DNA from: Lachnospiraceae bacterium
GTDB lineage: Bacteria > Bacillota > Clostridia > Lachnospirales > Lachnospiraceae
DNA: 64,000 bases
Direction: 5' to 3'
Assembly: GCA_017479935.1 (NCBI GenBank)
Contig: JAFVBO010000124.1
Span: 2,922-66,921 of the forward strand
The notes below the pieces were generated by a model. That model had not been told where the DNA came from. It made no database searches and saw only the letters and a list, made by a program, of their open reading frames with translations. Positions 1 to 8,047 of this stretch are shown here, in pieces (within the stretch, counting starts at the first letter, position 1; every line of letters starts with the position of its first letter). The position numbers and the translations under genes are program-made.

Positions 1-173
1 GGGAAACCGATATGCAGGATCGAGACCTGCTGCCTGCGCTCAACTGACGCAAACCAGAAAAAAACGACAGACACCAACCACGGCAATGTGGGCTTATGCT
101 GTTACAGCATATCTGCTCAAGTCGGAGGAGGCAACCATGAAAGCATTTGCTGGCCGGCCTCCTCTTTGCTATG

Positions 174-1862
174 CTACACCTCTTCTGTCAGAACCGAATG
201 CAACTTCACTTTAGCCTGTTTCTGGAAGAACGCGACCCCATAACATAATACCTGCTCATATCCATATAAGCCCCGAGCATATTGATTGATATCAATTTGA
301 TCAAATGCTTTAGCGCATTCCTTGTCCAATTCTGCGGCTGAGTCTGCCTTTTTTGCTTCAATGAGAATAGCCCGCCTTCCGTCATGGTCTTTCAAAACAA
401 TATCCGGCCTTCCAAGCCCACGTTCCTTATTGGTTTCCACTTCGTAGCCCATCCCGACAAAAATGCCTGCTAAGAACGCATGGTAATAGTCTTCCTTGTA
501 GTCAAAGTAACTGATAGTGCGCCACAGAAAGTCTGAAATGATCCTTGTAGCTGTAGCACTGTCACGATCCCAAAGTGCTCGCATTAGGTCTTTCTGTTTG
601 CTGGTATCGATCGTATCACGAAAATACTGGACTACCGTATCCTCGAAAATTGTTGCGATTTCCTTGTTCGGGATTTTGAGTCTTGTCATCTCGCCCGAGT
701 CATCCGGATCAATCTTGGTAACATAGCCGGTCATAAGCAATACGCTCCACAGATTGTCTTCAGAAGCGTGTAAGGTATCGTATGTTAATTCTTCTGTGAT
801 AGTCTGCTCAACGAAACCGCCATTCATCAACGCTTCAAATTTGCCTTTGACCTGGAAATCGGTCCGCTTAACGAAAGTCATCAGCACACCATTATGGCTG
901 GTGTTTTTCCAGTAGTTTTGTGGTCTGGCATCACCTGCATTATTAAGCGTGGAAACGTAGTTAATGACATCCCACGGACAATATATGTGACTATGGCCAA
1001 AGACATACCCGTCATACCAATCCTTAATGATCTGTGCGCTGGAACTTCTTCCTGCAGCTTGCAACAATGCCTGTACCTCTTCCTCTGTAAAACCGAAATA
1101 CTCGGAAAACAGGTCATCCGTCACCGAATATGCTGCGAAGTTGTTGCTGCCCGTAAATATGCTTTCTTTGGCTATGCGGAGGCATCCTGTCACAACTGCA
1201 AACCGCACATCTGTGTTGTCTTTAAGTGCGGCCTTGATCAATCCTCGGATGACATCCAGCATTTTTTCGTAGTATTGGTTTCCTGCGGTATTCTTCTCGC
1301 TGGCAATGGCTAAAGGTACATCGTATTCGTCTATAAGGACGATCACCTTCTCTCCATACACAGCTCGCATCATTCGAATGACAGTATTCATAGCATACTG
1401 TAAGTCAGAACGACTGACAGTCTGAGCTTGTAGTCGTAGAAACAGTTCTCGATCGTACGGATTAATCTTCGGACTGTCTGCCAGATCGGAATACTTTTTG
1501 CAAACATTCGCAATAGTAGCCTTCAGTTTGTCATAAGCTGTTTCAAAATCGTCTGACTCAACATCCTTAAACGATATTGAGAAAACCGGATACTTATTCA
1601 TCCACTCTTGACAAAAATCGCTATGCTTGCACACGTTAAGCCCGGCAAAAAGGCTCGCGCTGTTTTTGCGGACATCGAAAAAGTTCTCCAGTACGCTCAT
1701 CATCAGAGTCTTGCCAAAACGTCGAGGCCTCGTAATCCAGGTCACCTTATTGTTCGCACGTCTGACAATATCATATATGAACTCAGTTTTGTCGACATAG
1801 TATGCCTTCTCCGCCATCAGATCTTCAAAATCTGATTCTCCTATTCCCACCACAAACGACAT
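174..1862 (-). CDS. AAA-ATPase-like protein with C-terminal PD-(D/E)XK nuclease-like domain
   Basis: 562-aa ORF. The N-terminus has 'YYVDKTEFI...RPRRFGKTL' (P-loop-like, AAA-ATPase_like type). The C-terminus has 'RPDIVL...AILIEAKK' (D...E.K nuclease-type motif). Family recalled from memory, not searched. Confidence 0.8.
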   Translation of the reverse strand: MSFVVGIGESDFEDLMAEKAYYVDKTEFIYDIVRRANNKVTWITRPRRFGKTLMMSVLENFFDVRKNSASLFAGLNVCKHSDFCQEWMNKYPVFSISFKDVESDDFETAYDKLKATIANVCKKYSDLADSPKINPYDRELFLRLQAQTVSRSDLQYAMNTVIRMMRAVYGEKVIVLIDEYDVPLAIASEKNTAGNQYYEKMLDVIRGLIKAALKDNTDVRFAVVTGCLRIAKESIFTGSNNFAAYSVTDDLFSEYFGFTEEEVQALLQAAGRSSSAQIIKDWYDGYVFGHSHIYCPWDVINYVSTLNNAGDARPQNYWKNTSHNGVLMTFVKRTDFQVKGKFEALMNGGFVEQTITEELTYDTLHASEDNLWSVLLMTGYVTKIDPDDSGEMTRLKIPNKEIATIFEDTVVQYFRDTIDTSKQKDLMRALWDRDSATATRIISDFLWRTISYFDYKEDYYHAFLAGIFVGMGYEVETNKERGLGRPDIVLKDHDGRRAILIEAKKADSAAELDKECAKAFDQIDINQYARGLYGYEQVLCYGVAFFQKQAKVKLHSVLTEEV

Positions 1863-2016
1863 AAGTGCCCTCCTTTCTGGCTCTCGAATGTTTTATGGCC
1901 GACTGCCTTGCGTGATCATTATAGCTCATCAGCGGGCTATTCTGCAATTCTTTTGCGGAAAGTCTGCTCTTGGCTCTTTCTCTCCAATATTCTCTCAAAT
2001 TATACTACCGGTATAC

Positions 2017-2045
2017 TGGACATCCCCACCTGCCTGTGCTACAAT
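2017..2045 (+). promoter_or_regulatory. candidate sigma-70 promoter (TGGACA-N17-TACAAT)
   Basis: -35-like TGGACA at 2017-2022, a 17-nt spacer, and -10 TACAAT at 2040-2045. It points toward the terminator at 2295-2324 and the HTH/tRNA block. Confidence 0.35.
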
Positions 2046-2294
2046 ATGAACAGAAATAAACAGAACCACCCGGTTCGGAAAGAAAAGGCAATGTCGCAGA
2101 GATCATATTCGCAAAACCTCCATAGCTTATATCGTCTGCCCGAGCAGAAAAATCAGCCGTTGACCATATGTGTCGAATGGTTTGTTTCTGTGCGCTTTTC
2201 TAACCCCGGACCAAGTGGGATTCCGAATGCAGGTGTACCGTCAGAGACACCTGTGTAACCGAATCAAATTCTAAGCATATACCAGGCTCAGAGT

Positions 2295-2324
2295 ACCGCT
2301 TGTCCGTAGGGCAGGCGGTTTTTT
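2295..2324 (+). terminator. rho-independent terminator-like hairpin
   Basis: ACCGCTTG / CAGGCGGT stem (one G-U pair) with an 8-9 nt loop, followed by TTTTTT. Confidence 0.5.
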
Positions 2325-2350
2325 AGTACCATTTTGTCAGGAGAATTCAC

Positions 2351-2467
2351 ATGGAAAGTTCGATAACAGGCAACTATCCGCTTCCACTTCTGCCATTGTC
2401 GCAGAGAGAACGATTACGAAGTGAGAAGAAGGAAAGAAACACGAAAAACAGAATACAGATGGCGTAA
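2351..2467 (+). CDS. possible 38-aa small ORF upstream of HTH gene 1
   Basis: AGGAGA lies 6 nt upstream of the ATG. It translates to MESSITGNYPLPLLPLSQRERLRSEKKERNTKNRIQMA. It is below the ORF-track cutoff and I recognise no homology. Confidence 0.2.
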   Translation: MESSITGNYPLPLLPLSQRERLRSEKKERNTKNRIQMA

Positions 2468-2517
2468 CCGATTTCATCTTCTGTGTATCGGTGCGCCGAT
2501 ATAGGAGGAATGAAACG

Positions 2518-2766
2518 ATGGAGATTCCGTTTATTGATTTCGCCGCCACTGGGCAGAACATCGATACTCTGAGAAAGGCAGCCGGACTGTCTGTCAAGGA
2601 CATGCAGAAGGTGTTCGGTTTTGGCACTCCGCAGGCAATCTACAAGTGGATCCATGGGGATTCCATGCCGACCATTGACAACCTGGTTGTGCTGGCAGCA
2701 ATCCTGGGAGTTACGATGGATGAGATTGTTGTAGTAGGCAAGCGTTTCATCAGCAAGTGCGGATGA
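2518..2766 (+). CDS. XRE-family helix-turn-helix protein (copy 1)
   Basis: AGGAGG RBS then ATG at 2518 (internal Met of ORF 2491..2766). The 'AIYKWIHGDSMPTIDNLVVLAAILGVTMDEI' region is a typical HTH_XRE C-terminal half. It is colinear with, and about 35-40% identical by eye to, the 3580..3804 product. Confidence 0.8.
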   Translation: MEIPFIDFAATGQNIDTLRKAAGLSVKDMQKVFGFGTPQAIYKWIHGDSMPTIDNLVVLAAILGVTMDEIVVVGKRFISKCG

Positions 2767-2829
2767 ACGAGAACATAGAGAAAGCGGGTCGGAACGAGCC
2801 GACCCGCAGATGGCAAGATAAGTATTTTT

Positions 2830-2898
2830 GAGGATGTGGTGTAAAGGTAGCACGCTGCGCTTGGGACGCAGGGGCGCGGTTCGAATCCGACATCTTCA
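2830..2898 (+). tRNA. tRNA-Pro(TGG)-like, possibly degenerate
   Basis: Acceptor GAGGATG/CATCTTC and anticodon arm CTGCG-CTTGGGA-CGCAG. The T-loop is TTCGAAT, but the T stem has two mismatches and the gene is only 69 nt. Confidence 0.4.
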
Positions 2899-2903
2899 AC
2901 TAT

Positions 2904-2975
2904 GGGAGCATAGCTCAATGGTAGAGCATCCGGCTGTTAACCGGAGGGTTGCAGGTTCGAGCCCTGCTGCTCCCG
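2904..2975 (+). tRNA. tRNA-Asn(GTT)
   Basis: Fully canonical cloverleaf: acceptor GGGAGCA/TGCTCCC, D arm GCTC-AATGGTA-GAGC, anticodon loop CTGTTAA, T arm GCAGG-TTCGAGC-CCTGC. Confidence 0.9.
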
Positions 2976-2982
2976 CTCTTTC

Positions 2983-3055
2983 TGGGACTTAGCTCAGGTG
3001 GTGAGAGCGCTGGCCTTATAAGCCAGTGATGCGGGTTCGATTCCCGCAGTCCCGA
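2983..3055 (+). tRNA. tRNA-Ile(TAT)
   Basis: Acceptor TGGGACT/AGTCCCG (U1-G72), D arm GCTC-AGGTGGTGA-GAGC, anticodon arm CTGGC-CTTATAA-GCCAG, T arm GCGGG-TTCGATT-CCCGC. Confidence 0.7.
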
Positions 3056-3057
3056 TT

Positions 3058-3132
3058 TGCGGGCGAGTGGAACGGAGTACCATCGCCGGTCTCATAAGCC
3101 GGAAATAACAGGTTCGACTCCTGTGCCCGCTA
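3058..3132 (+). tRNA. tRNA with CAT anticodon (Met or lysidine-Ile2 type), non-canonical
   Basis: Anticodon arm CCGGT-CTCATAA-GCCGG and T arm ACAGG-TTCGACT-CCTGT. Positions 1-72 mismatch, and there is an extra nucleotide between the D and anticodon stems. Confidence 0.45.
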
Positions 3133-3160
3133 CTTAAGGTGCAATAATGCCGACCATCAT

Positions 3161-3229
3161 TTATTCAGCGGCGAACGCCAAATTGAACGCCTCACCGCTG
3201 AATAAAAAATAGTGTCCTACGCGGACACT
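3161..3229 (+). terminator. two consecutive hairpins after tRNA block 1
   Basis: TTATTCAGCGG...CCGCTGAATAA (3161-3205) and AGTGTCC-TACGC-GGACACT (3211-3229). There is no clean T-run, so a terminator role is uncertain. Confidence 0.3.
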
Positions 3230-3317
3230 TCCCACCACGCTTCGCCTGTGCTATAGTACAGACAACAGCGAAAGAAAAACGACTGCAAAAACAAGAACGA
3301 AAAGGAGAAAGAAGACA

Positions 3318-3470
3318 ATGCTTTACGCCGCAACCATGATCTTTAGACAGCATGAGCAAGAAAAAGAACGCTGCTGGCATCGCCAGGAACGTCAATTTGT
3401 CGTGCCCATGTCTGGAAAACGGATCATGACGGGAAAAGCAGAGGAAAGCCTTACACGAATACTGAGCTAA
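3318..3470 (+). CDS. possible 50-aa small ORF upstream of HTH gene 2
   Basis: AAAGGAGAAAG RBS 7 nt upstream of the ATG. It translates to MLYAATMIFRQHEQEKERCWHRQERQFVVPMSGKRIMTGKAEESLTRILS. The terminator at 3520-3555 follows it. It is below the ORF-track cutoff. Confidence 0.3.
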   Translation: MLYAATMIFRQHEQEKERCWHRQERQFVVPMSGKRIMTGKAEESLTRILS

Positions 3471-3519
3471 TGCGTTACCCAGTACGTGCGCTCTCCCACT
3501 CTTTCTTTATCGTATGACA

Positions 3520-3555
3520 ATACCGCTTTCCTGACCGGGGAAGCGGTATTTTTTG
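3520..3555 (+). terminator. rho-independent terminator
   Basis: ATACCGCTT / AAGCGGTAT 9-bp stem, 12-nt loop, followed by TTTTTT. Confidence 0.6.
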
Positions 3556-3579
3556 TGCGAAAAAAGAAGGAGAAGGAAG

Positions 3580-3804
3580 ATGAACTATCCTGTGATTGAT
3601 CCCGTGGGAACTGGAATGAATATGAAGTCGCTGATCAAGAATAGCGGGAATACAGTGGCCGGTGTTGTGCGACTGCTTGGACTAGCAGATCGAAGCACGA
3701 TGTACAAGTGGCTGCGGGGCGAGGCTCTACCTGGGATTGACAACCTGCTCGCCCTCAGTAATCTGCTCGGCGTTTCGATCAATGACATACTGGTGACGCG
3801 GTAG
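3580..3804 (+). CDS. XRE-family helix-turn-helix protein (copy 2)
   Basis: AAGGAGAAGG RBS then ATG at 3580 (internal Met of ORF 3553..3804). Carries 'TMYKWLRGEALPGIDNLLALSNLLGVSINDI'. It is a paralog of 2518..2766. Its stop codon lies 14 nt before the next tRNA. Confidence 0.8.
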   Translation: MNYPVIDPVGTGMNMKSLIKNSGNTVAGVVRLLGLADRSTMYKWLRGEALPGIDNLLALSNLLGVSINDILVTR

Positions 3805-3818
3805 CTGTCACCGCATGA

Positions 3819-3891
3819 AGGTTTGTGGTGCAAACGGAAAGCACATTGGTCTCCAAAACCGAAGATTTCGGATCATACCCGAACGAACCTG
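3819..3891 (+). tRNA. tRNA-Trp(CCA), non-canonical T-loop
   Basis: Acceptor AGGTTTG/CGAACCT, D arm GTGC-AAACGGAAA-GCAC, anticodon arm TTGGT-CTCCAAA-ACCGA. The T arm is TTCGG-ATCATAC-CCGAA and has no TTC in the T-loop. Confidence 0.6.
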
Positions 3892-3896
3892 CGCTT

Positions 3897-3968
3897 AGCT
3901 CTCTGGTGCAATTGGCAACACGCCGGATTCTGACTTCGGAATTGTAGGTTCAAGTCCTGCGGGGGCTG
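3897..3968 (+). tRNA. tRNA-Gln(CTG)
   Basis: Acceptor AGCTCTC/GGGGGCT (G-U rich), anticodon arm CCGGA-TTCTGAC-TTCGG, T arm GTAGG-TTCAAGT-CCTGC. Confidence 0.7.
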
Positions 3969-4032
3969 CTCTTCTATCTTTCTTTTCCGTCTGAACCGTC
4001 TTGTATTCAGACAGGTTGTTCTGCTTTACTTC

Positions 4033-4104
4033 GGGTCATTAGTTTAATGGCAGAACAGCGGCCTTTTAAGCCGCACGATCAGGGTTCGAGTCCCCGATGG
4101 CCCA
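4033..4104 (+). tRNA. tRNA-Lys(TTT)
   Basis: Acceptor GGGTCAT/ATGGCCC, D arm GTTT-AATGGCA-GAAC, anticodon arm GCGGC-CTTTTAA-GCCGC, T-loop TTCGAGT. The T stem has one mismatch. Confidence 0.75.
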
Positions 4105-4113
4105 CTTATATAT

Positions 4114-4187
4114 GGCTCCGTCGTCTAGTCGGGAAGGACGCTACCCATTCAAGGTGGAAATGTCGGGTTCGAATCCCGTCGGAGCTA
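4114..4187 (+). tRNA. tRNA-Glu(TTC), A at position 33
   Basis: Acceptor GGCTCCG/CGGAGCT, D arm GTCT-AGTCGGGAA-GGAC. The anticodon arm CTACC-CATTCAA-GGTGG has A33 instead of U33. T-loop is TTCGAAT. Confidence 0.6.
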
Positions 4188-4191
4188 CTTA

Positions 4192-4265
4192 CGCCCCATC
4201 CACTAATCGGCTCAGGTGGCCGCCCTCTCAAGGCGGCAATGCGGGTTCGAATCCCGCTGGGGTGA
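4192..4265 (+). tRNA. tRNA-Glu(CTC)
   Basis: Acceptor CGCCCCA/TGGGGTG, D arm CACT-AATCGGCTCA-GGTG, anticodon arm CCGCC-CTCTCAA-GGCGG, T arm GCGGG-TTCGAAT-CCCGC. Confidence 0.7.
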
Positions 4266-4272
4266 GCTCCTT

Positions 4273-4345
4273 GGACAGTTAGCTGACACGGTTGTAGCGA
4301 CGGCCTGAAAAGCCGTAGAAGTCCGTTCGACCCGGACACTGTCCA
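4273..4345 (+). tRNA. tRNA-Phe(GAA)
   Basis: Acceptor GGACAGT/ACTGTCC, D arm GCTG-...-TAGC, anticodon arm ACGGC-CTGAAAA-GCCGT, T arm GTCCG-TTCGACC-CGGAC. Confidence 0.85.
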
Positions 4346-4351
4346 CTCTTC

Positions 4352-4420
4352 GTGCGTATGATCCGGTGGTCAGATCGGTCTGCAAAATCGATCGGGGTGG
4401 TTCAGCTCCACCTGCGCACT
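4352..4420 (+). tRNA. tRNA-Cys(GCA), reduced D arm
   Basis: Acceptor GTGCGTA/TGCGCAC, anticodon loop CTGCAAA on a stem extendable to 7 bp, T arm GGTGG-TTCAGCT-CCACC. It is only 69 nt and has a poorly formed D arm. Confidence 0.6.
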
Positions 4421-4493
4421 TGCGGTCTGGTGCAATAGGTTAGCACACGGGTCTTTGACACCCGCAATGTCGGTTCAATCCCGACGACCGCCG
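4421..4493 (+). tRNA. tRNA-Gln(TTG)
   Basis: It starts directly after the Cys gene. D arm GTGC-AATAGGTTA-GCAC, anticodon arm CGGGT-CTTTGAC-ACCCG, T arm GTCGG-TTCAATC-CCGAC. Positions 1-72 are a T/C mismatch. Confidence 0.75.
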
Positions 4494-4494
4494 C

Positions 4495-4566
4495 GTCTCA
4501 TTCGTCTAAGGGAAAGGACAGGCGCCTTCTAAGCGTCCAATGCAGGTTCAAGTCCTGCATGAGATA
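4495..4566 (+). tRNA. tRNA-Arg(TCT)
   Basis: Acceptor GTCTCAT/ATGAGAT, D arm GTCT-AAGGGAAA-GGAC, anticodon arm GGCGC-CTTCTAA-GCGTC, T arm GCAGG-TTCAAGT-CCTGC. Confidence 0.8.
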
Positions 4567-4569
4567 TAT

Positions 4570-4641
4570 GTCCCCGTAGGCTAACGGATATACCGGATGG
4601 CTACGAACCATCAAATGCACGTTCGATTCGTGCCGGGGACA
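4570..4641 (+). tRNA. tRNA-Arg(ACG)
   Basis: Acceptor GTCCCCG/CGGGGAC, anticodon arm GATGG-CTACGAA-CCATC, T arm GCACG-TTCGATT-CGTGC. The D stem is weak. Confidence 0.75.
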
Positions 4642-4643
4642 CT

Positions 4644-4716
4644 GTGGCCGTGGCAGACTTGGCAATGCAGCGGACTGTGACTCCGCCCTATACGGGTTCA
4701 AATCCCGTCGGTCACC
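4644..4716 (+). tRNA. tRNA-His(GTG)
   Basis: Acceptor GTGGCCG/CGGTCAC, anticodon arm GCGGA-CTGTGAC-TCCGC, T arm ACGGG-TTCAAAT-CCCGT. No G-1 is encoded. Confidence 0.75.
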
Positions 4717-4730
4717 GCTTTTGAGCGAAA

Positions 4731-4779
4731 AGAGCAACGAGGAGCGTACCAAACTTCCGTTGCTCTATTTCATTTTTTT
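4731..4779 (+). terminator. rho-independent terminator closing the tRNA array
   Basis: AGAGCAACG ... CGTTGCTCT 9-bp stem followed by ATTTCATTTTTTT. Confidence 0.7.
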
Positions 4780-4888
4780 GTCGTGTCTGTATCTGTTCTT
4801 CTTTCTCTTTCTATGTGTACTCTGCCTCATACAAGGCATCATATAATCTGTCCATTCTTTTTCTCCATCAATTCATCATTTCCACACC

Positions 4889-5134
4889 TTACCCGGAGTA
4901 TTTCTCAAAACACCATTTCGCAATCTTTTTGATCAGCTCCTCCGGTAAAGGCTGATCATAGGGAAGCCGTATCGTGCCCTTACTTACGTCAAATTCTGCA
5001 AGATCCTCTTCAAAAGCCGCCGTCGCTTCATCACCCGGATAAATGCCCAGATGTTTCTTTGAAGCAGCAAAATGGATGATGTTCCTGCCTTTCCAGTAAG
5101 TAGGCATGGACCAGGAGATCCGGGTCCTTTGCAT
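4889..5134 (-). CDS. DUF1801 (YdhG-like) domain protein, interrupted by an in-frame TAA
   Basis: 'ISWSMPTYWKGRNIIHFAASKKHLGIYPG' matches the YdhG/DUF1801 core. The reading frame continues upstream through a single TAA (5135-5137) to an ATG at 5188 (MSELRDASYLQWLQQVR*MQRTR...). Confidence 0.6.
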   Translation of the reverse strand: MQRTRISWSMPTYWKGRNIIHFAASKKHLGIYPGDEATAAFEEDLAEFDVSKGTIRLPYDQPLPEELIKKIAKWCFEKYSG

Positions 5135-5530
5135 TTACCGCACCTGCTGCAGCCATTGCAGGTAAGACGCATCCCGCAATTCAGACATCTTGGGCCAAAA
5201 TATTTTACCGAGCAGAAAGGAGCTGCAGAGTTCCATGCCTACTTCTATCGCACGGAAGTGAAGCAGGAAGAAAAGGATATCCCAATGCGTCCGGCGGCGC
5301 TGACCAACATGCCGCTGATCGATGAGAAACTGGGAAATATCGCTGTGAACTTCTGGGATCTGACATGGAATGACGAAAACAGATATTTACCCTATGAGAC
5401 CCGGCTTCTTCTCTCTCTGACCAATTCCGCTTTTCCTAGACACGGGCGCTTTGCGTATTTCTCGCAAAGCGCCGCATCTCTTCGTTGCCATACGACACAC
5501 CTTCCGTTGCGATGCGCCGCGCCTCTACAC

Positions 5531-8047
5531 TTACTCCTTCAGCCAGTCCAGCGCATCGGTATATTCATACGGGAGCCCGTTCGCCTTGGCATACCCGGCG
5601 GCATAGCTGCCGCGGTTGACAATCAAGGATACATGGGGGCTGTCCGAGAAGACACCTTTTTCGATGGTGGTAACGCTGTCCGGCACGAAAACTTCTGTCA
5701 GTTGACTACAATTTTGGAAGGCGCCATAGCCGATCTGAACCACTTCGTCCGGCAGTCTTACCATCTTCAGGCTGTCGCATAAATCAAAAGCAAATTTCCC
5801 GATCACACGGACGCTAGACGGAATGTCCACCTTCCAAAGCTTCCTGCATCCTGAAAAGAGAGAATCGGAAAGGACCTCGACCCCATCCGGCAAAGATATG
5901 CTTTCCAGCTGCGTGCAGTAATGAAAGGCGCCTTTCTCCAGCGTGTTCACCGTTTTCGGAATCTGAATTTCCTTCAGGTTCTTACAGAAAGAAAACGCGT
6001 CTTCCCCAACGATCCGAATCCCATGCGGAATGGAATAGCCCTCCACGGGATTGGCGCGGGGATACAGCAGCAGGCGCTTATCCGGTTTGGAAAAGAGAAC
6101 CCCGCTGATCGAAGCAAACGTAGGATTGTCCGGCGAAACCCGAATTCTTGCCAGGCTATCGCAACGGTCAAATACATCTTCGCCGAGCGTTTTCAGATGT
6201 TCGGGAAGCGTGATGTCCTGCAGATCATCGCAGGACATAAACGCCTGATCCCCAAGCACTTCCAGGCTATCCGGCAGCGCAAGCTTTGTCAGCCTTCCGC
6301 AATAATCGAATGCATGAGCGCCAATCTCTTTTAGCGCGGCCGGCAGCGTGATCTTCCTGAGGTTGTTGCAGCGTTCAAAAGCAAACGGCCCAATCTTTTC
6401 GATGCTGTCGGGAAGACGCAGCTCTCGCAGATCCTCGCAGTGCGAGAACATTTTTTCGGAGAGAACCGCCAATCCGGCCGGAAGGTCCACCTTTGTCAGA
6501 TGGATACATCTGGCGAAAGCGGAGTCGCCAATCGCAGAAACGCTGTCCGGAAGATGAACACCGGTCAACCCGCTACAGCTCGAAAAGGCAGCGGATCCGA
6601 TGCTTTCCGTTTGGGTAGGCAGGGTGATTTCCGAAAGCCCGATGCAGTGCGTAAACGCCAATGCCCCGATCTCCCGGAGCTTTTCCGGAAAATGGATTTC
6701 CTCCAGGCTGCGGCAATGGGAAAAGGCCTCTTTTCCGATGACGGTCAGGTCGTCCGGCATGACGCAAATGCTTAAGTGATCACACCCCAAAAACAGGCGG
6801 TTCGGGAGTTCGCTCATGCCGTCCGGAATGCGGATTTCGGAAAGATTTTCGCACCCGTAAAAGACGCCCTCCTCCATGCCTGCCAGCTTTTCGGGCAGCG
6901 GCATCGCAACCAGGCTTTTGCATTTTCTGAAGACATATTTCCCGATCCTGGTAAGACCGGTTGGCATGCGAACGATCCGCAGACTCGAGCAAAAAGAAAA
7001 CAGGTAGTCGGAAAGCGCCGTCACCGCCTCCGGCAGATCGATTTCCAAAAGCCTTCTGCAATACGAGAAGGCGGACGGCCCGATCATCCGAACGCTCTCC
7101 GGGAGAACGATCCTTTTCAGATGACTGCAGCGCGAAAAGGCCAGTTCGCCGATCTCTGTCACACTGACCGGCAGCCGGATTTCCTTTAGGTCGCTGCACC
7201 CAAAAAAGGTGGATTTTTCAATCCGTTTCACACCCTCCGGGAGCTCAATCCGAGTAAGACCGGAGCAGGAAAACGCCGATTCGCCGATTTCTTCCACGCT
7301 GGTGGGAATTTCAAGCCCGGTCAAACGTGTGCAGTAAGAAAACGCCGAATTTCCGATCTTTTGCAGCCGGTCGGTCAGCTTCACACAGCACAGGTTCTTG
7401 CAGTCATAAAAAGCCGAGGCGCCAATCTGCTCCGTAAACTTCGGGATCTCGTACTCTTCCGCCGTAAAAGCGCACGGATACGCGATCAGCCTCCTGTCCT
7501 GGCGGGAGAAAAGGACCCCCTCCCACATCTCAAAGAACGGATTCTCCCAGACCACCTGGATATCCGTCAGATTGATGCAGCTTGCGAACGGATTCTCCCC
7601 CATCTTCCTCACGTGCTCGGGGATCGTGATTTCCGTCAGCTTTTCGCAGGCCGAAAAGGCATAATCCCCGATCTCCGTCACACCGGCCGGGATCACGACC
7701 TCCGCGAGATTCCGGCAGTTAAAGAACGCAGAGGCGCCGATGCGTTTCAGCCCATCCGGCAGATGAACGGCCGACAGCTTGCTGCACCAGTAAAAGGCGC
7801 GGTCGCTGATCTCTGCAACGCTATCGGGGATCGCAACCTCCACGAGGGCGCTGTTCTCGATGAAAGCAGCGGAAAACGCTTCCTCTCCGATTTTTGTCAC
7901 TTTCCTGCCGGCGATTTCCTCCGGGATTGTTAAAATCTTTTCCTTGCCATGATACTTTTTTAACTCAATTGTTCCGTCGCCCAGAATCTCGTATTCATAG
8001 TCCTGCCAGACATTTCCGATTTTCTCAGCTACCGTATTTTCCCCCAT
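5531..8047 (-). CDS. BspA-type leucine-rich repeat (LRR_5) protein, no signal peptide
   Basis: 838 aa made almost entirely of about 23-aa repeats of the form 'L..I.IP..V..IG..AF..C..L'. The N-terminus is not hydrophobic. Confidence 0.85.
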   Translation of the reverse strand: MGENTVAEKIGNVWQDYEYEILGDGTIELKKYHGKEKILTIPEEIAGRKVTKIGEEAFSAAFIENSALVEVAIPDSVAEISDRAFYWCSKLSAVHLPDGLKRIGASAFFNCRNLAEVVIPAGVTEIGDYAFSACEKLTEITIPEHVRKMGENPFASCINLTDIQVVWENPFFEMWEGVLFSRQDRRLIAYPCAFTAEEYEIPKFTEQIGASAFYDCKNLCCVKLTDRLQKIGNSAFSYCTRLTGLEIPTSVEEIGESAFSCSGLTRIELPEGVKRIEKSTFFGCSDLKEIRLPVSVTEIGELAFSRCSHLKRIVLPESVRMIGPSAFSYCRRLLEIDLPEAVTALSDYLFSFCSSLRIVRMPTGLTRIGKYVFRKCKSLVAMPLPEKLAGMEEGVFYGCENLSEIRIPDGMSELPNRLFLGCDHLSICVMPDDLTVIGKEAFSHCRSLEEIHFPEKLREIGALAFTHCIGLSEITLPTQTESIGSAAFSSCSGLTGVHLPDSVSAIGDSAFARCIHLTKVDLPAGLAVLSEKMFSHCEDLRELRLPDSIEKIGPFAFERCNNLRKITLPAALKEIGAHAFDYCGRLTKLALPDSLEVLGDQAFMSCDDLQDITLPEHLKTLGEDVFDRCDSLARIRVSPDNPTFASISGVLFSKPDKRLLLYPRANPVEGYSIPHGIRIVGEDAFSFCKNLKEIQIPKTVNTLEKGAFHYCTQLESISLPDGVEVLSDSLFSGCRKLWKVDIPSSVRVIGKFAFDLCDSLKMVRLPDEVVQIGYGAFQNCSQLTEVFVPDSVTTIEKGVFSDSPHVSLIVNRGSYAAGYAKANGLPYEYTDALDWLKE

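Follow-up and report, generated by a model that had tools for sequence, protein, structure and literature searches.

What accessory tRNA arrays are for, in bacteria and in phages, has been an open question for decades. One such array lies in a 64,000-nucleotide stretch of DNA from a Lachnospiraceae bacterium (contig JAFVBO010000124.1; the whole stretch is called the window below), and it raises the question in a concrete form: what calls these tRNA genes into action? Here, we describe a short leader open reading frame (ORF), followed by a predicted transcription attenuator, that precedes the larger part of the array and whose codons correspond to the tRNA genes downstream. We consider it probable that this is a mobile accessory tRNA array which is induced through ribosome-mediated transcription attenuation when its own tRNA species run short. 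Whether its role is that of a backup against tRNA depletion is, in our view, about an even call.

ARAGORN identifies 15 tRNA genes in the window, all on the forward strand and arranged in two blocks: four genes at 2829-3133 (block 1) and 11 genes at 3819-4716 (block 2). An earlier note on this DNA, made from the sequence alone and referred to here as the original prediction, had listed the same 15 genes, the same blocks and the same anticodons, and had proposed a covariance check; 14 of the 15 pass the Rfam tRNA model RF00005 with 31.7-74.9 bits, and ARAGORN draws all 15 as cloverleaves. The remaining gene, tRNA-Cys (4352-4420), falls below RF00005 and scores best, at 30.8 bits, on the tRNA-Sec model, under the cut-off of that model. 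Each of the oddities that had been pointed out (the Trp T-loop, A33 in Glu, the 1-72 mismatches, the Pro T-stem and the short Cys) is visible in the ARAGORN drawings. The further statements that no rRNA gene is nearby and that no gene encodes a 3' CCA also hold: ARAGORN and Rfam find no rRNA genes and no further tRNAs beyond the array in the 64 kilobases (kb), and the 3' CCA is encoded by none of the 15 genes. Spacers within the blocks measure 0-8 nucleotides (nt), with one exception of 63 nt. The array is cut by the window edge. On the identical source contig (locus L001, where the window position equals the L001 position minus 2973), genes for Tyr(GTA), Ser(AGA) and Ser(GCT) lie further left, giving at least 18 genes in total. 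The original prediction left out the helix-turn-helix (HTH) genes, the candidate operator, the leader ORF and the attenuator, all of which were found here (Table 1) and tell more about the locus than any of its other parts.

The leader ORF stands upstream of HTH2, the HTH gene ahead of block 2, and has 41-50 codons in the window and its relatives. Its core, FRQHEQEKERCWHRQERQF, is made up solely of the eight amino acids of block 2. All 19 core codons are read by block-2 tRNAs, and every one of the 11 block-2 tRNAs has at least one cognate codon there. As a null model, we took 17 long ORFs from elsewhere in the window, which together comprise 11,381 codons. In this background the cognate share is 26.8%, the longest cognate run is 6 codons, the best 19-codon window contains 13 cognate codons, and the full set of 11 tRNAs is sampled in none of the 10,922 27-codon windows; under a binomial model, 19 cognate codons out of 19 have a probability of 1.35e-11. 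Relatives with full arrays have 16-18 cognate codons among the 19 of the core, and their leaders sample nearly all of the array tRNAs, with 14/14 in L006, 12/12 in L053, 10/10 in L043 and 8/8 in L015.

Differences between arrays are mirrored in their leaders. Arrays of the L006 type hold Ile GAT, and Ile codons are present in their leaders; in L044 and L045 the array includes Met, Asp and Ile tRNAs, and the leader core reads ...FMDIMEPLF. Composition is kept while order is not, as in ERCWHRQERQF in the window and KRFWFCQERQF in relatives, which favors a codon sensor over a structural peptide. Other blocks have leaders of their own. On the source contig itself, a Leu/Ser/Tyr leader, MITITRANMLSSLYSLSYSLLYLS..., and a terminator stand ahead of the Tyr-Ser-Ser genes, and in L014, L048 and L127 the same leader family is found ahead of genes for Tyr, Leu (four) and Ser (two). 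The leader LSSSYVLYLSLLL likewise precedes Tyr/Leu/Ser genes; L091 has SIIWSRHDISIYHDSDDI ahead of genes for Asp, Ile, Arg, His, Trp, Ser and Tyr, L080 has QQFKEEQFSKQFCEKQEC ahead of genes for Gln, Cys, Phe, Glu and Lys, and L065, a human-gut locus, has KRQCEQKQERACKKQR ahead of genes for Lys, Glu, Cys, Gln and Arg. When every leader was scored against every block, block-2-type leaders matched blocks of their own type at 82-100% and class-II leaders matched the full Tyr/Leu/Ser block at 81-87%, whereas class-II and block-2 types matched each other at 0% in both directions.

The transcript beyond the core has the anatomy of an attenuator. In 12 of 12 loci, the leader and the HTH gene are separated by a terminator (regions 3 and 4); in the paralogous module of L023 the stem is different in sequence and still pairs. 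In a 20-locus alignment the terminator is 91% paired, as against 50-61% when the partner strand is slid. No promoter-like site was found between the terminator and HTH2. The antiterminator would be formed by region 2 and the 5' arm of the terminator, of which 8-11 nucleotides pair in co-transcriptional folds in 12 of 12 loci. Its pairing is 90% conserved, compared with 30-44% for slid strands, and includes one A-U to G-C compensation in five loci, with a G-U intermediate. In relatives, region 2 reads CAGAAAAGCAGAUCAUG (codons S-E-K-Q-I-M), and its synonymous positions are near-invariant. The hairpin of regions 1 and 2 encloses the entire core and is present in 14 of 14 loci, and the leader region folds with a z-score of -6.2 relative to shuffled sequences. 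In these modelled folds the classical pairings 1:2, 2:3 and 3:4 are all present and correctly placed, so that region 2 would become free wherever in the core a ribosome stalled. HTH2 may in addition be controlled at the level of translation: when the full-length RNA is folded at minimum energy, the tract CUCUUUCUUU pairs with the Shine-Dalgarno region of HTH2 and extends the terminator stem.

Upstream of the leader, a palindrome adjoins the -35 box of a promoter-like site, approximately 100 nt from the leader ATG. Its half-sites are invariant and its spacer is free to vary. The palindrome occurs once per locus in 33 loci, and the window holds a single copy, with no other even at two mismatches. 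Its distance to the -10 box was a constant 22 nt in the loci inspected (the window, L010 and L014), and in L023, where the HTH protein is 50% identical, the half-sites are different (TGTCAT-N3-ATGACA). This is the signature expected of an operator for a dimeric HTH protein, and we regard the palindrome as a candidate operator for HTH2. No such palindromes were found upstream of the HTH1 module in the ranges scanned.

HTH1 and HTH2 are paralogous (38% identity, E 3e-20), and one of them stands ahead of each tRNA block. HTH2 lies close to the Pfam thresholds, with 22.9 bits on HTH_3 (cut-off 23) and 22.3 bits on HTH_26 (cut-off 22), while HTH1-type relatives pass clearly at 35.7 bits. A profile of the HTH2 family matched XRE-type chains alone, and weakly, when compared with PDB. 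At E <= 0.001 we collected 122 relatives of HTH2, mostly 66-82% identical. Among loci with an HTH protein of 69% identity or more, all those whose contig does not end there have tRNA-Trp(CCA) and an array behind the HTH gene; the gap between the HTH stop and tRNA-Trp is mostly 5-15 nt, with three exceptions of 41, 135 and 185 nt. HTH clades with approximately 50-57% identity are found either ahead of Gln- or Glu-led arrays or, on human-gut contigs, at the 3' end of the array. None of 12 generic XRE controls (from lactobacilli, enterococci and others) has an adjacent array. Because close relatives precede arrays while the generic controls do not, we describe the HTH2 family as specific to tRNA arrays. 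Only 7 of the 74 codons of HTH2 are sensed codons, compared with 26.8% in background genes (P = 2e-4), and it contains no Phe, Cys, His or Gln; HTH2 looks built for translation while the sensed tRNAs are scarce. Two observations concern the more distant members of the family: the clade with about 50% identity lies at the 3' rather than the 5' end of the array in L065-L068, L070-L075, L083 and L091, and a clade with about 45% identity is mostly found without adjacent tRNAs.

From these observed features, their conservation and the codon-anticodon match, we infer a read-through that depends on ribosome stalling. Transcription would start at the promoter-like site beside the palindrome, and the leader would be translated, its core offering at least one codon to each of the 11 downstream tRNAs. 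With all aminoacyl-tRNAs available, the ribosome would run through the core, region 2 would be covered or re-paired with region 1, the terminator would form and the array would stay off. If any one tRNA became scarce, the ribosome would stall in the core, region 2 would pair with the 5' arm of the terminator, and the polymerase would go on to transcribe HTH2 and the 11 tRNA genes. The tRNAs would then be released by RNase P and by 3' processing, a CCA-adding enzyme of the host or of the island would complete them, and the new tRNAs, once charged, would relieve the stall and close the loop. HTH2, made from the same transcript and containing few sensed codons, probably binds the operator and feeds back on initiation, with either sign. 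Possible triggers would be the cleavage of tRNAs by anticodon nucleases or toxins, phage attack or other translational stress.

Several results speak against this mechanism or limit how well it could work. When equilibrium folding was repeated with ribosome masks, the 14-base-pair (bp) terminator formed at every modelled position, and the antiterminator has only 8-11 pairs; since the terminator always wins at equilibrium, the switch must be kinetic. Shuffle-based tests for covariation in the attenuator helices were not significant, because the alignment columns are near-invariant and the loci closely related, and the conservation of region 2 is confounded as region 2 is also coding sequence. 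The reduced arrays of L016 and L017 retain leader codons for tRNAs that have since been lost. Trp, Cys and Lys have one sensing codon each in the core, and the sensitivity to them may be weak. For HTH1 and block 1, whose control region does have a terminator, a search for a codon-matched leader among the upstream ORFs, including the conserved one of 38 amino acids, gave weak matching only, in the window as in the complete island L127. Finally, three products of block 2, Glu with A33, His without G-1 and Gln with U1.C72, may be poorly charged or decoded.

The unusual tRNAs themselves deserve a closer look, as the original prediction had taken the many non-canonical cloverleaves as signs of divergence from housekeeping tRNAs, which might be read as degeneration. 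This does not fit the oddest members. The Trp T-loop ATCATAC has A54/U58 in place of T54/A58; as a peculiarity of the window it can be ruled out, being common to about 20 distinct Trp genes across the clade. Compensatory double changes are seen at 12 of 20 cloverleaf pairs of tRNA-Trp (21 sequences). The short tRNA-Cys is kept in relatives, with 68-69 nt, a 4-bp D-stem and a 3-4-nt D-loop. Of its 22 pairs, 13 show compensation, and every copy has U73, which in Escherichia coli is a major identity element for CysRS. Conservation in many loci, together with many compensatory stem changes, indicates that Trp and Cys are conserved variants under structural selection and are not decaying pseudogenes. 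The 1:72 mismatch of the CAT tRNA is an initiator-like trait and not necessarily a defect.

Other peculiarities of the tRNA genes were noted along the way. No array tRNA-His encodes G-1 (window; L010 11732-11807; L065; L091): a T is found at -1, and C73 is kept. In some relatives a 3' CCA is encoded, by tRNA-His alone. Both tRNA-Gln genes of the window are without the U1-A72 pair that relatives keep (CTG has A1-U72, TTG has U1.C72); in the Gln amidation pathway the first base pair serves as an identity element, and charging could therefore be affected. Anticodons with A34, which are unusual in bacteria, where normally Arg ACG alone has it (deaminated to inosine), occur in several arrays: Ser AGA (L001 2836-2922), Leu AAG (L014, L048, L080, L127) and Pro AGG (L010). 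The window tRNA-Lys(TTT) is 77% identical to the Lys(CTT) in the same position in relatives and 71% identical to their Lys(TTT), which hints at an anticodon shift in the window gene. The 63-nt spacer at 3970-4032 was compared with tRNAs as a possible remnant and is similar to none; it holds a small hairpin, GTCTGAA...TTCAGAC.

The surroundings of the array are cellular. According to Pfam and PHROGs, its neighbors in the window include an AAA-ATPase/PD-(D/E)XK gene, a BspA-type leucine-rich repeat gene, prephenate dehydratase, and FMN-binding and flavoprotein genes, with MurJ upstream on L001. The window belongs to the chromosome of a rumen Lachnospiraceae, and its gene content is that of a bacterial chromosome and not of a phage. 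The closest relatives come from rumen metagenome-assembled genomes (MAGs) and metagenomes, others come from human-gut metagenomes, and a protein identical to HTH2 is recorded for a Lachnospiraceae MAG. The module is present in at least five unrelated neighborhoods (MurJ/PDT in the window; trp operon, MatE and MarR; TetR, LysR and Fic; LexA-like, WYL and transposase; PcfJ/Dam/SpaA contigs), and the MAGs that carry it are binned to several families. The occurrence of the same module in unrelated neighborhoods supports the earlier proposal that the array is accessory and horizontally spread. Membership varies too: among relatives whose HTH protein is 69-82% identical, block 2 has 4-15 genes. Since block-2 members are gained and lost among close relatives, they are dispensable and not sole copies in those genomes, and this gene loss suggests that the array is redundant with the housekeeping set of the present host as well. 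Some relatives carry a bigger island, with as many as 29 tRNAs in 6 kb and with genes related to translation between the tRNA blocks (L006 7279-9589, L045 3715-10925, L127 6348-7850). These genes, all absent from the window copy, encode a CCA-adding enzyme, an RNaseH-like protein, a DUF2828/DUF7788/VWA protein (PHROG 850, annotated 'RNA-binding protein'), a release factor of class I, an AlaX-like editing protein and a SEC-C protein.

A phage-borne origin, which had also been suggested, is not supported. With the window and its relatives as queries, phage and plasmid DNA collections yielded matches to single tRNA genes and nothing more. The module was found in 1 of 2.9 million IMG/VR contigs, where it is flanked by ParB-like and unknown genes, and no phage structural genes were found on that contig. 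The CCA-adding enzyme was not found in viral contigs. A search of the island proteins against PADLOC-DB for known anti-phage defence gave no match except a marginal one to RmrA (E ~1e-3) for HTH1.

How else might the locus be explained? The main residual rival, which we consider unlikely, holds that the leader is a functional micropeptide, or is incidental, that the hairpin is an operon boundary, and that control is through the HTH protein alone, with no codon sensing. The leader is indeed conserved as a peptide family, C[KR]Q.RHE.KRFWFCQ.R.F-VMPVSEKQIM, its ancestral form is retained in reduced arrays, the operator is very well conserved and the terminator is kept in all equilibrium folds. 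A micropeptide would, however, be expected neither to conserve the composition of its core rather than the order of residues nor to have unrelated counterparts in other sub-blocks and clades, each matching its own tRNA set. As an operon boundary, the hairpin would be oddly placed, since the promoter and leader both precede it, the HTH2 ATG follows after 29 nt and no promoter separates the two, and the near-invariant synonymous sites of region 2 are complementary to the terminator arm. We regard it as highly improbable that these genes are pseudogenes with degenerate cloverleaves, left over from an acquired array that is now silent and decaying: the regulatory region is intact, the match of leader and tRNAs in the window is the best in the data set (19/19 and 11/11), and Cys and Trp retain identity elements besides being conserved with compensatory changes across many loci. 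What such a view does account for is the low Rfam scores (CAT 31.7 bits, Glu(TTC) 43.9 bits, Cys failing the tRNA model), A33 in Glu(TTC), the two 1:72 mismatches, the Pro T-stem mismatches, and a window version that is without the Leu genes, the CCA-adding enzyme and the other island genes of its relatives.

Codon supply, the other option raised by the original prediction, would make the array a device for reading codons that are rare in the host and common in a mobile element or phage. Some members fit, namely Ile(TAT), which reads ATA (8% of Ile codons), Pro(TGG), which reads CCA (8%), and Gln(TTG), which reads CAA (16%), and the larger islands occur on contigs with mobile-element genes (PcfJ, ParB-like, Dam). 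The array nevertheless serves common and rare codons alike, and we hold this explanation to be quite unlikely because most members read abundant codons (GAA 52%, GAG 48%, CAG 84%, AAG 63%, TTT 61%); the window copy also sits in a chromosome without element genes to serve, and a constitutive supplement needs no leader, terminator and repressor-like gene ahead of it. Firmicutes do typically hold tRNA genes in long operons (PMC8421152), so that an ordinary housekeeping operon might be considered. This is extremely unlikely given the absence of rRNA linkage, the differing chromosomal neighbors of the module among relatives, the loss and gain of members between close relatives, the non-canonical A33, A54/U58 swap and mini D-arm, and a dedicated HTH gene and attenuator ahead of the block. 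Set against these alternatives, attenuation by codon sensing remains the explanation that we favor, and it lends indirect support, through the codon-matched leader attenuator, to one part of the original prediction, the idea of a backup pool, while the part concerning codon supply is not borne out.

The systems that come closest are the L-arrays, which are long, horizontally acquired, supernumerary tRNA arrays such as the trn operon of Anabaena PCC 7120 (Santamaria-Gomez et al. 2021, PMC8421152). The Anabaena array is induced by translational stress and is repressed by TrcR, a protein of the ribbon-helix-helix type whose gene lies elsewhere in the genome (PMC8421152; PMC10272220, Wang et al. 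2023). The paper on L-arrays mentions no leader, attenuation or terminator (PMC8421152). The island described here resembles L-arrays in its long same-strand arrays, short spacers, patchy distribution and horizontal transfer, and in its supernumerary genes, to judge from the gene loss in relatives. L-arrays are under dedicated repressor-type control, as the island probably is, and the silence and stress induction of L-arrays would be expected here from the attenuator architecture. The differences are that the definition of L-arrays comes from outside Firmicutes, that the gene for the regulator lies within each sub-operon here and codes for an XRE-type HTH protein, unlike that for TrcR, and that the island is divided into sub-operons which would each have a sensor of their own.

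Leader-peptide attenuators control amino-acid operons (trpL, hisL, pheL, thrL, ilvL) and pheST, and leaders that respond to several amino acids exist (ilv, thr). The pheL leader attenuator is a described example (PMC3082878). The short leader ORF, the run of regulatory codons, the 1:2, 2:3 and 3:4 pairings and the terminator before the regulated genes are shared with the present locus. The products, in contrast, are tRNAs here and not biosynthetic enzymes or a synthetase; the core, in which eight amino acids and 11 anticodons are sampled, corresponds one-for-one to the genes that follow; and the leader is long, with about 23 codons past the core and region 2 inside the ORF. A T-box binds one uncharged tRNA directly via a specifier codon, without a ribosome, and controls synthetase, transporter and biosynthesis genes. 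It is similar in being a cis-acting Firmicute device in which the state of one particular tRNA governs read-through into translation-supply genes, and it differs in that tRNA is bound directly there while the leader would be translated by a ribosome here. At E <= 1, no Rfam leader family or T-box was found in 1800-5600, where only tRNAs matched.

Phage tRNA arrays have been proposed or shown to counter tRNA-targeting defences (PMC10264068, PMC11555353, PMC11464382). They too consist of spare variant tRNAs that could stand in for host tRNAs lost to anticodon nucleases, and the species Lys, Arg, His, Asn, Glu, Gln and Tyr overlap known nuclease targets. The present array differs in lying on a bacterial chromosome or non-viral element and in its predicted induction by a sensor, with no infection programme. 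By analogy, this literature supplies a plausible natural trigger for induction of the array. Our searches of the literature for 'tRNA array' or 'tRNA gene cluster' together with 'leader peptide' found no such pairing, although coverage was incomplete and an earlier description is possible; similarly incomplete searches for 'leader peptide' attenuation of a tRNA operon found nothing relevant. Leader-peptide attenuation whose regulated genes are tRNAs, with codons one-for-one and coupled to an array-specific HTH protein and operator, is likely to be new.

If the mechanism holds, leader-peptide attenuation would for the first time be seen to control tRNA genes, and classical attenuation would be extended from amino-acid supply to tRNA supply in a homeostatic loop in which tRNA is both the signal and the product. 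It would also establish a family of array-specific HTH regulators with a defined operator. The chances seem to us roughly equal that such islands act as a mobile, modular 'tRNA insurance' in gut and rumen Firmicutes, in which the leader of each sub-operon senses the species that the sub-operon encodes and switches on variant spares when these are depleted. The odd tRNAs (the A54/U58 T-loop and the mini D-arm of Cys) would then be kept by selection, perhaps because they escape tRNA-targeting enzymes. As regards the purpose of accessory arrays, the leader codons would amount to a written specification of the inducing signal, a shortage of the very tRNAs encoded, and a leader whose codons mirror the tRNA genes makes the 'backup tRNA' hypothesis checkable by a simple reporter experiment. 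The codon-matching rule could further be used for the genome-wide discovery of sensors and for synthetic circuits that report the levels of chosen tRNAs.

Table 1. Features of the tRNA island and its control regions, in window coordinates (aa, amino acids)
Feature	Position	Strand	Basis
tRNA-Ser(GCT), 3' end	1-39	+	source contig L001
AAA-ATPase_like + PDDEXK_9 nuclease-family gene, 562 aa, splitting the island between the Tyr-Ser-Ser block and HTH1	174-1862	-	Pfam; no PADLOC match
Upstream ORF of the HTH1 control region, weak codon match to block 1	2046-2258	+	ORF
Intrinsic terminator upstream of HTH1, 11-bp stem + T-run, conserved in relatives	2295-2319	+	sequence
Conserved 38-aa ORF (MESSITGNYPLPLLPLSQRE...) between terminator and HTH1	2351-2467	+	counterpart in relatives MNRYLRDYSIMNLLPSGEMREKK...NKAA, 38-39 aa
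HTH1, 82-aa XRE-type HTH	2518-2766	+	PF01381
tRNA-Pro(TGG), defective T-stem	2829-2900	+	ARAGORN; Rfam 51.9 bits
tRNA-Asn(GTT), canonical	2904-2976	+	ARAGORN; Rfam 74.9 bits
tRNA-Ile(TAT)	2983-3055	+	ARAGORN; Rfam 70.6 bits
CAT-anticodon tRNA, U1.U72 mismatch	3058-3133	+	Rfam 31.7 bits, lowest among the 14 passing
Candidate HTH2 operator, palindrome AGTGTCC-N5-GGACACT adjoining the -35 box	3211-3229		conservation
Promoter-like site TTCCCA, 17 nt, TATAGT, extended -10 TG	3229-3257	+	sequence
Leader ORF, 50 codons, AGGAG Shine-Dalgarno 10 nt upstream	3318-3470	+	called as a gene in 5 contigs
Region 1, predicted to pair with region 2 absent a stalled ribosome	3335-3350	+	14/14 loci
Leader core, 19 consecutive codons FRQHEQEKERCWHRQERQF, residues 9-27	3342-3398	+	codon-anticodon match
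Region 2, inside leader ORF, from 14 nt past the last core codon	3412-3429	+	pairing with terminator 5' arm
CUCUUUCUUU tract, complementary to HTH2 Shine-Dalgarno region (~3562-3575)	3499-3508	+	full-length minimum-energy fold
Terminator (regions 3+4), 14-bp hairpin, T-run 3551-3556, 29 nt before HTH2 ATG	3519-3550	+	12/12 loci
HTH2, 74-aa putative XRE-type HTH	3580-3804	+	homology, array-specific family
tRNA-Trp(CCA), 14 nt past HTH2 stop, T-loop ATCATAC	3819-3892	+	ARAGORN
tRNA-Gln(CTG), A1-U72	3897-3969	+	ARAGORN, Rfam
tRNA-Lys(TTT), after 63-nt spacer	4033-4105	+	ARAGORN, Rfam
tRNA-Glu(TTC), A33	4114-4188	+	ARAGORN; Rfam 43.9 bits
tRNA-Glu(CTC)	4192-4265	+	ARAGORN, Rfam
tRNA-Phe(GAA)	4273-4346	+	ARAGORN, Rfam
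tRNA-Cys(GCA), 69 nt, mini D-arm (4-bp stem, 4-nt loop), U73	4352-4420	+	ARAGORN
tRNA-Gln(TTG), U1.C72 mismatch	4421-4494	+	ARAGORN, Rfam
tRNA-Arg(TCT)	4495-4566	+	ARAGORN, Rfam
tRNA-Arg(ACG)	4570-4642	+	ARAGORN, Rfam
tRNA-His(GTG), C73 but T at -1, no encoded G-1	4644-4716	+	ARAGORN, Rfam
Intrinsic terminator closing the block-2 operon, hairpin 4727-4771 then T-run	4727-4779	+	sequence

Two further hairpins border block 1. One, at 2784-2807, lies between HTH1 and tRNA-Pro (GCGGGTCGG...CCGACCCGC), and the other, at 3153-3200, follows the block (TTATTCAGCGG...CCGCTGAATAA, then A-rich sequence); neither has a T-run on the forward strand. With no obvious forward-strand terminator after block 1, block-1 transcripts may enter the control region of block 2. 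The AAA-ATPase_like/PDDEXK_9 gene that splits the island is seen in this lineage only. In relatives, Tyr is followed by four Leu genes, none of which is present on this contig, and the AAA-ATPase/PDDEXK gene may thus have come with a deletion.

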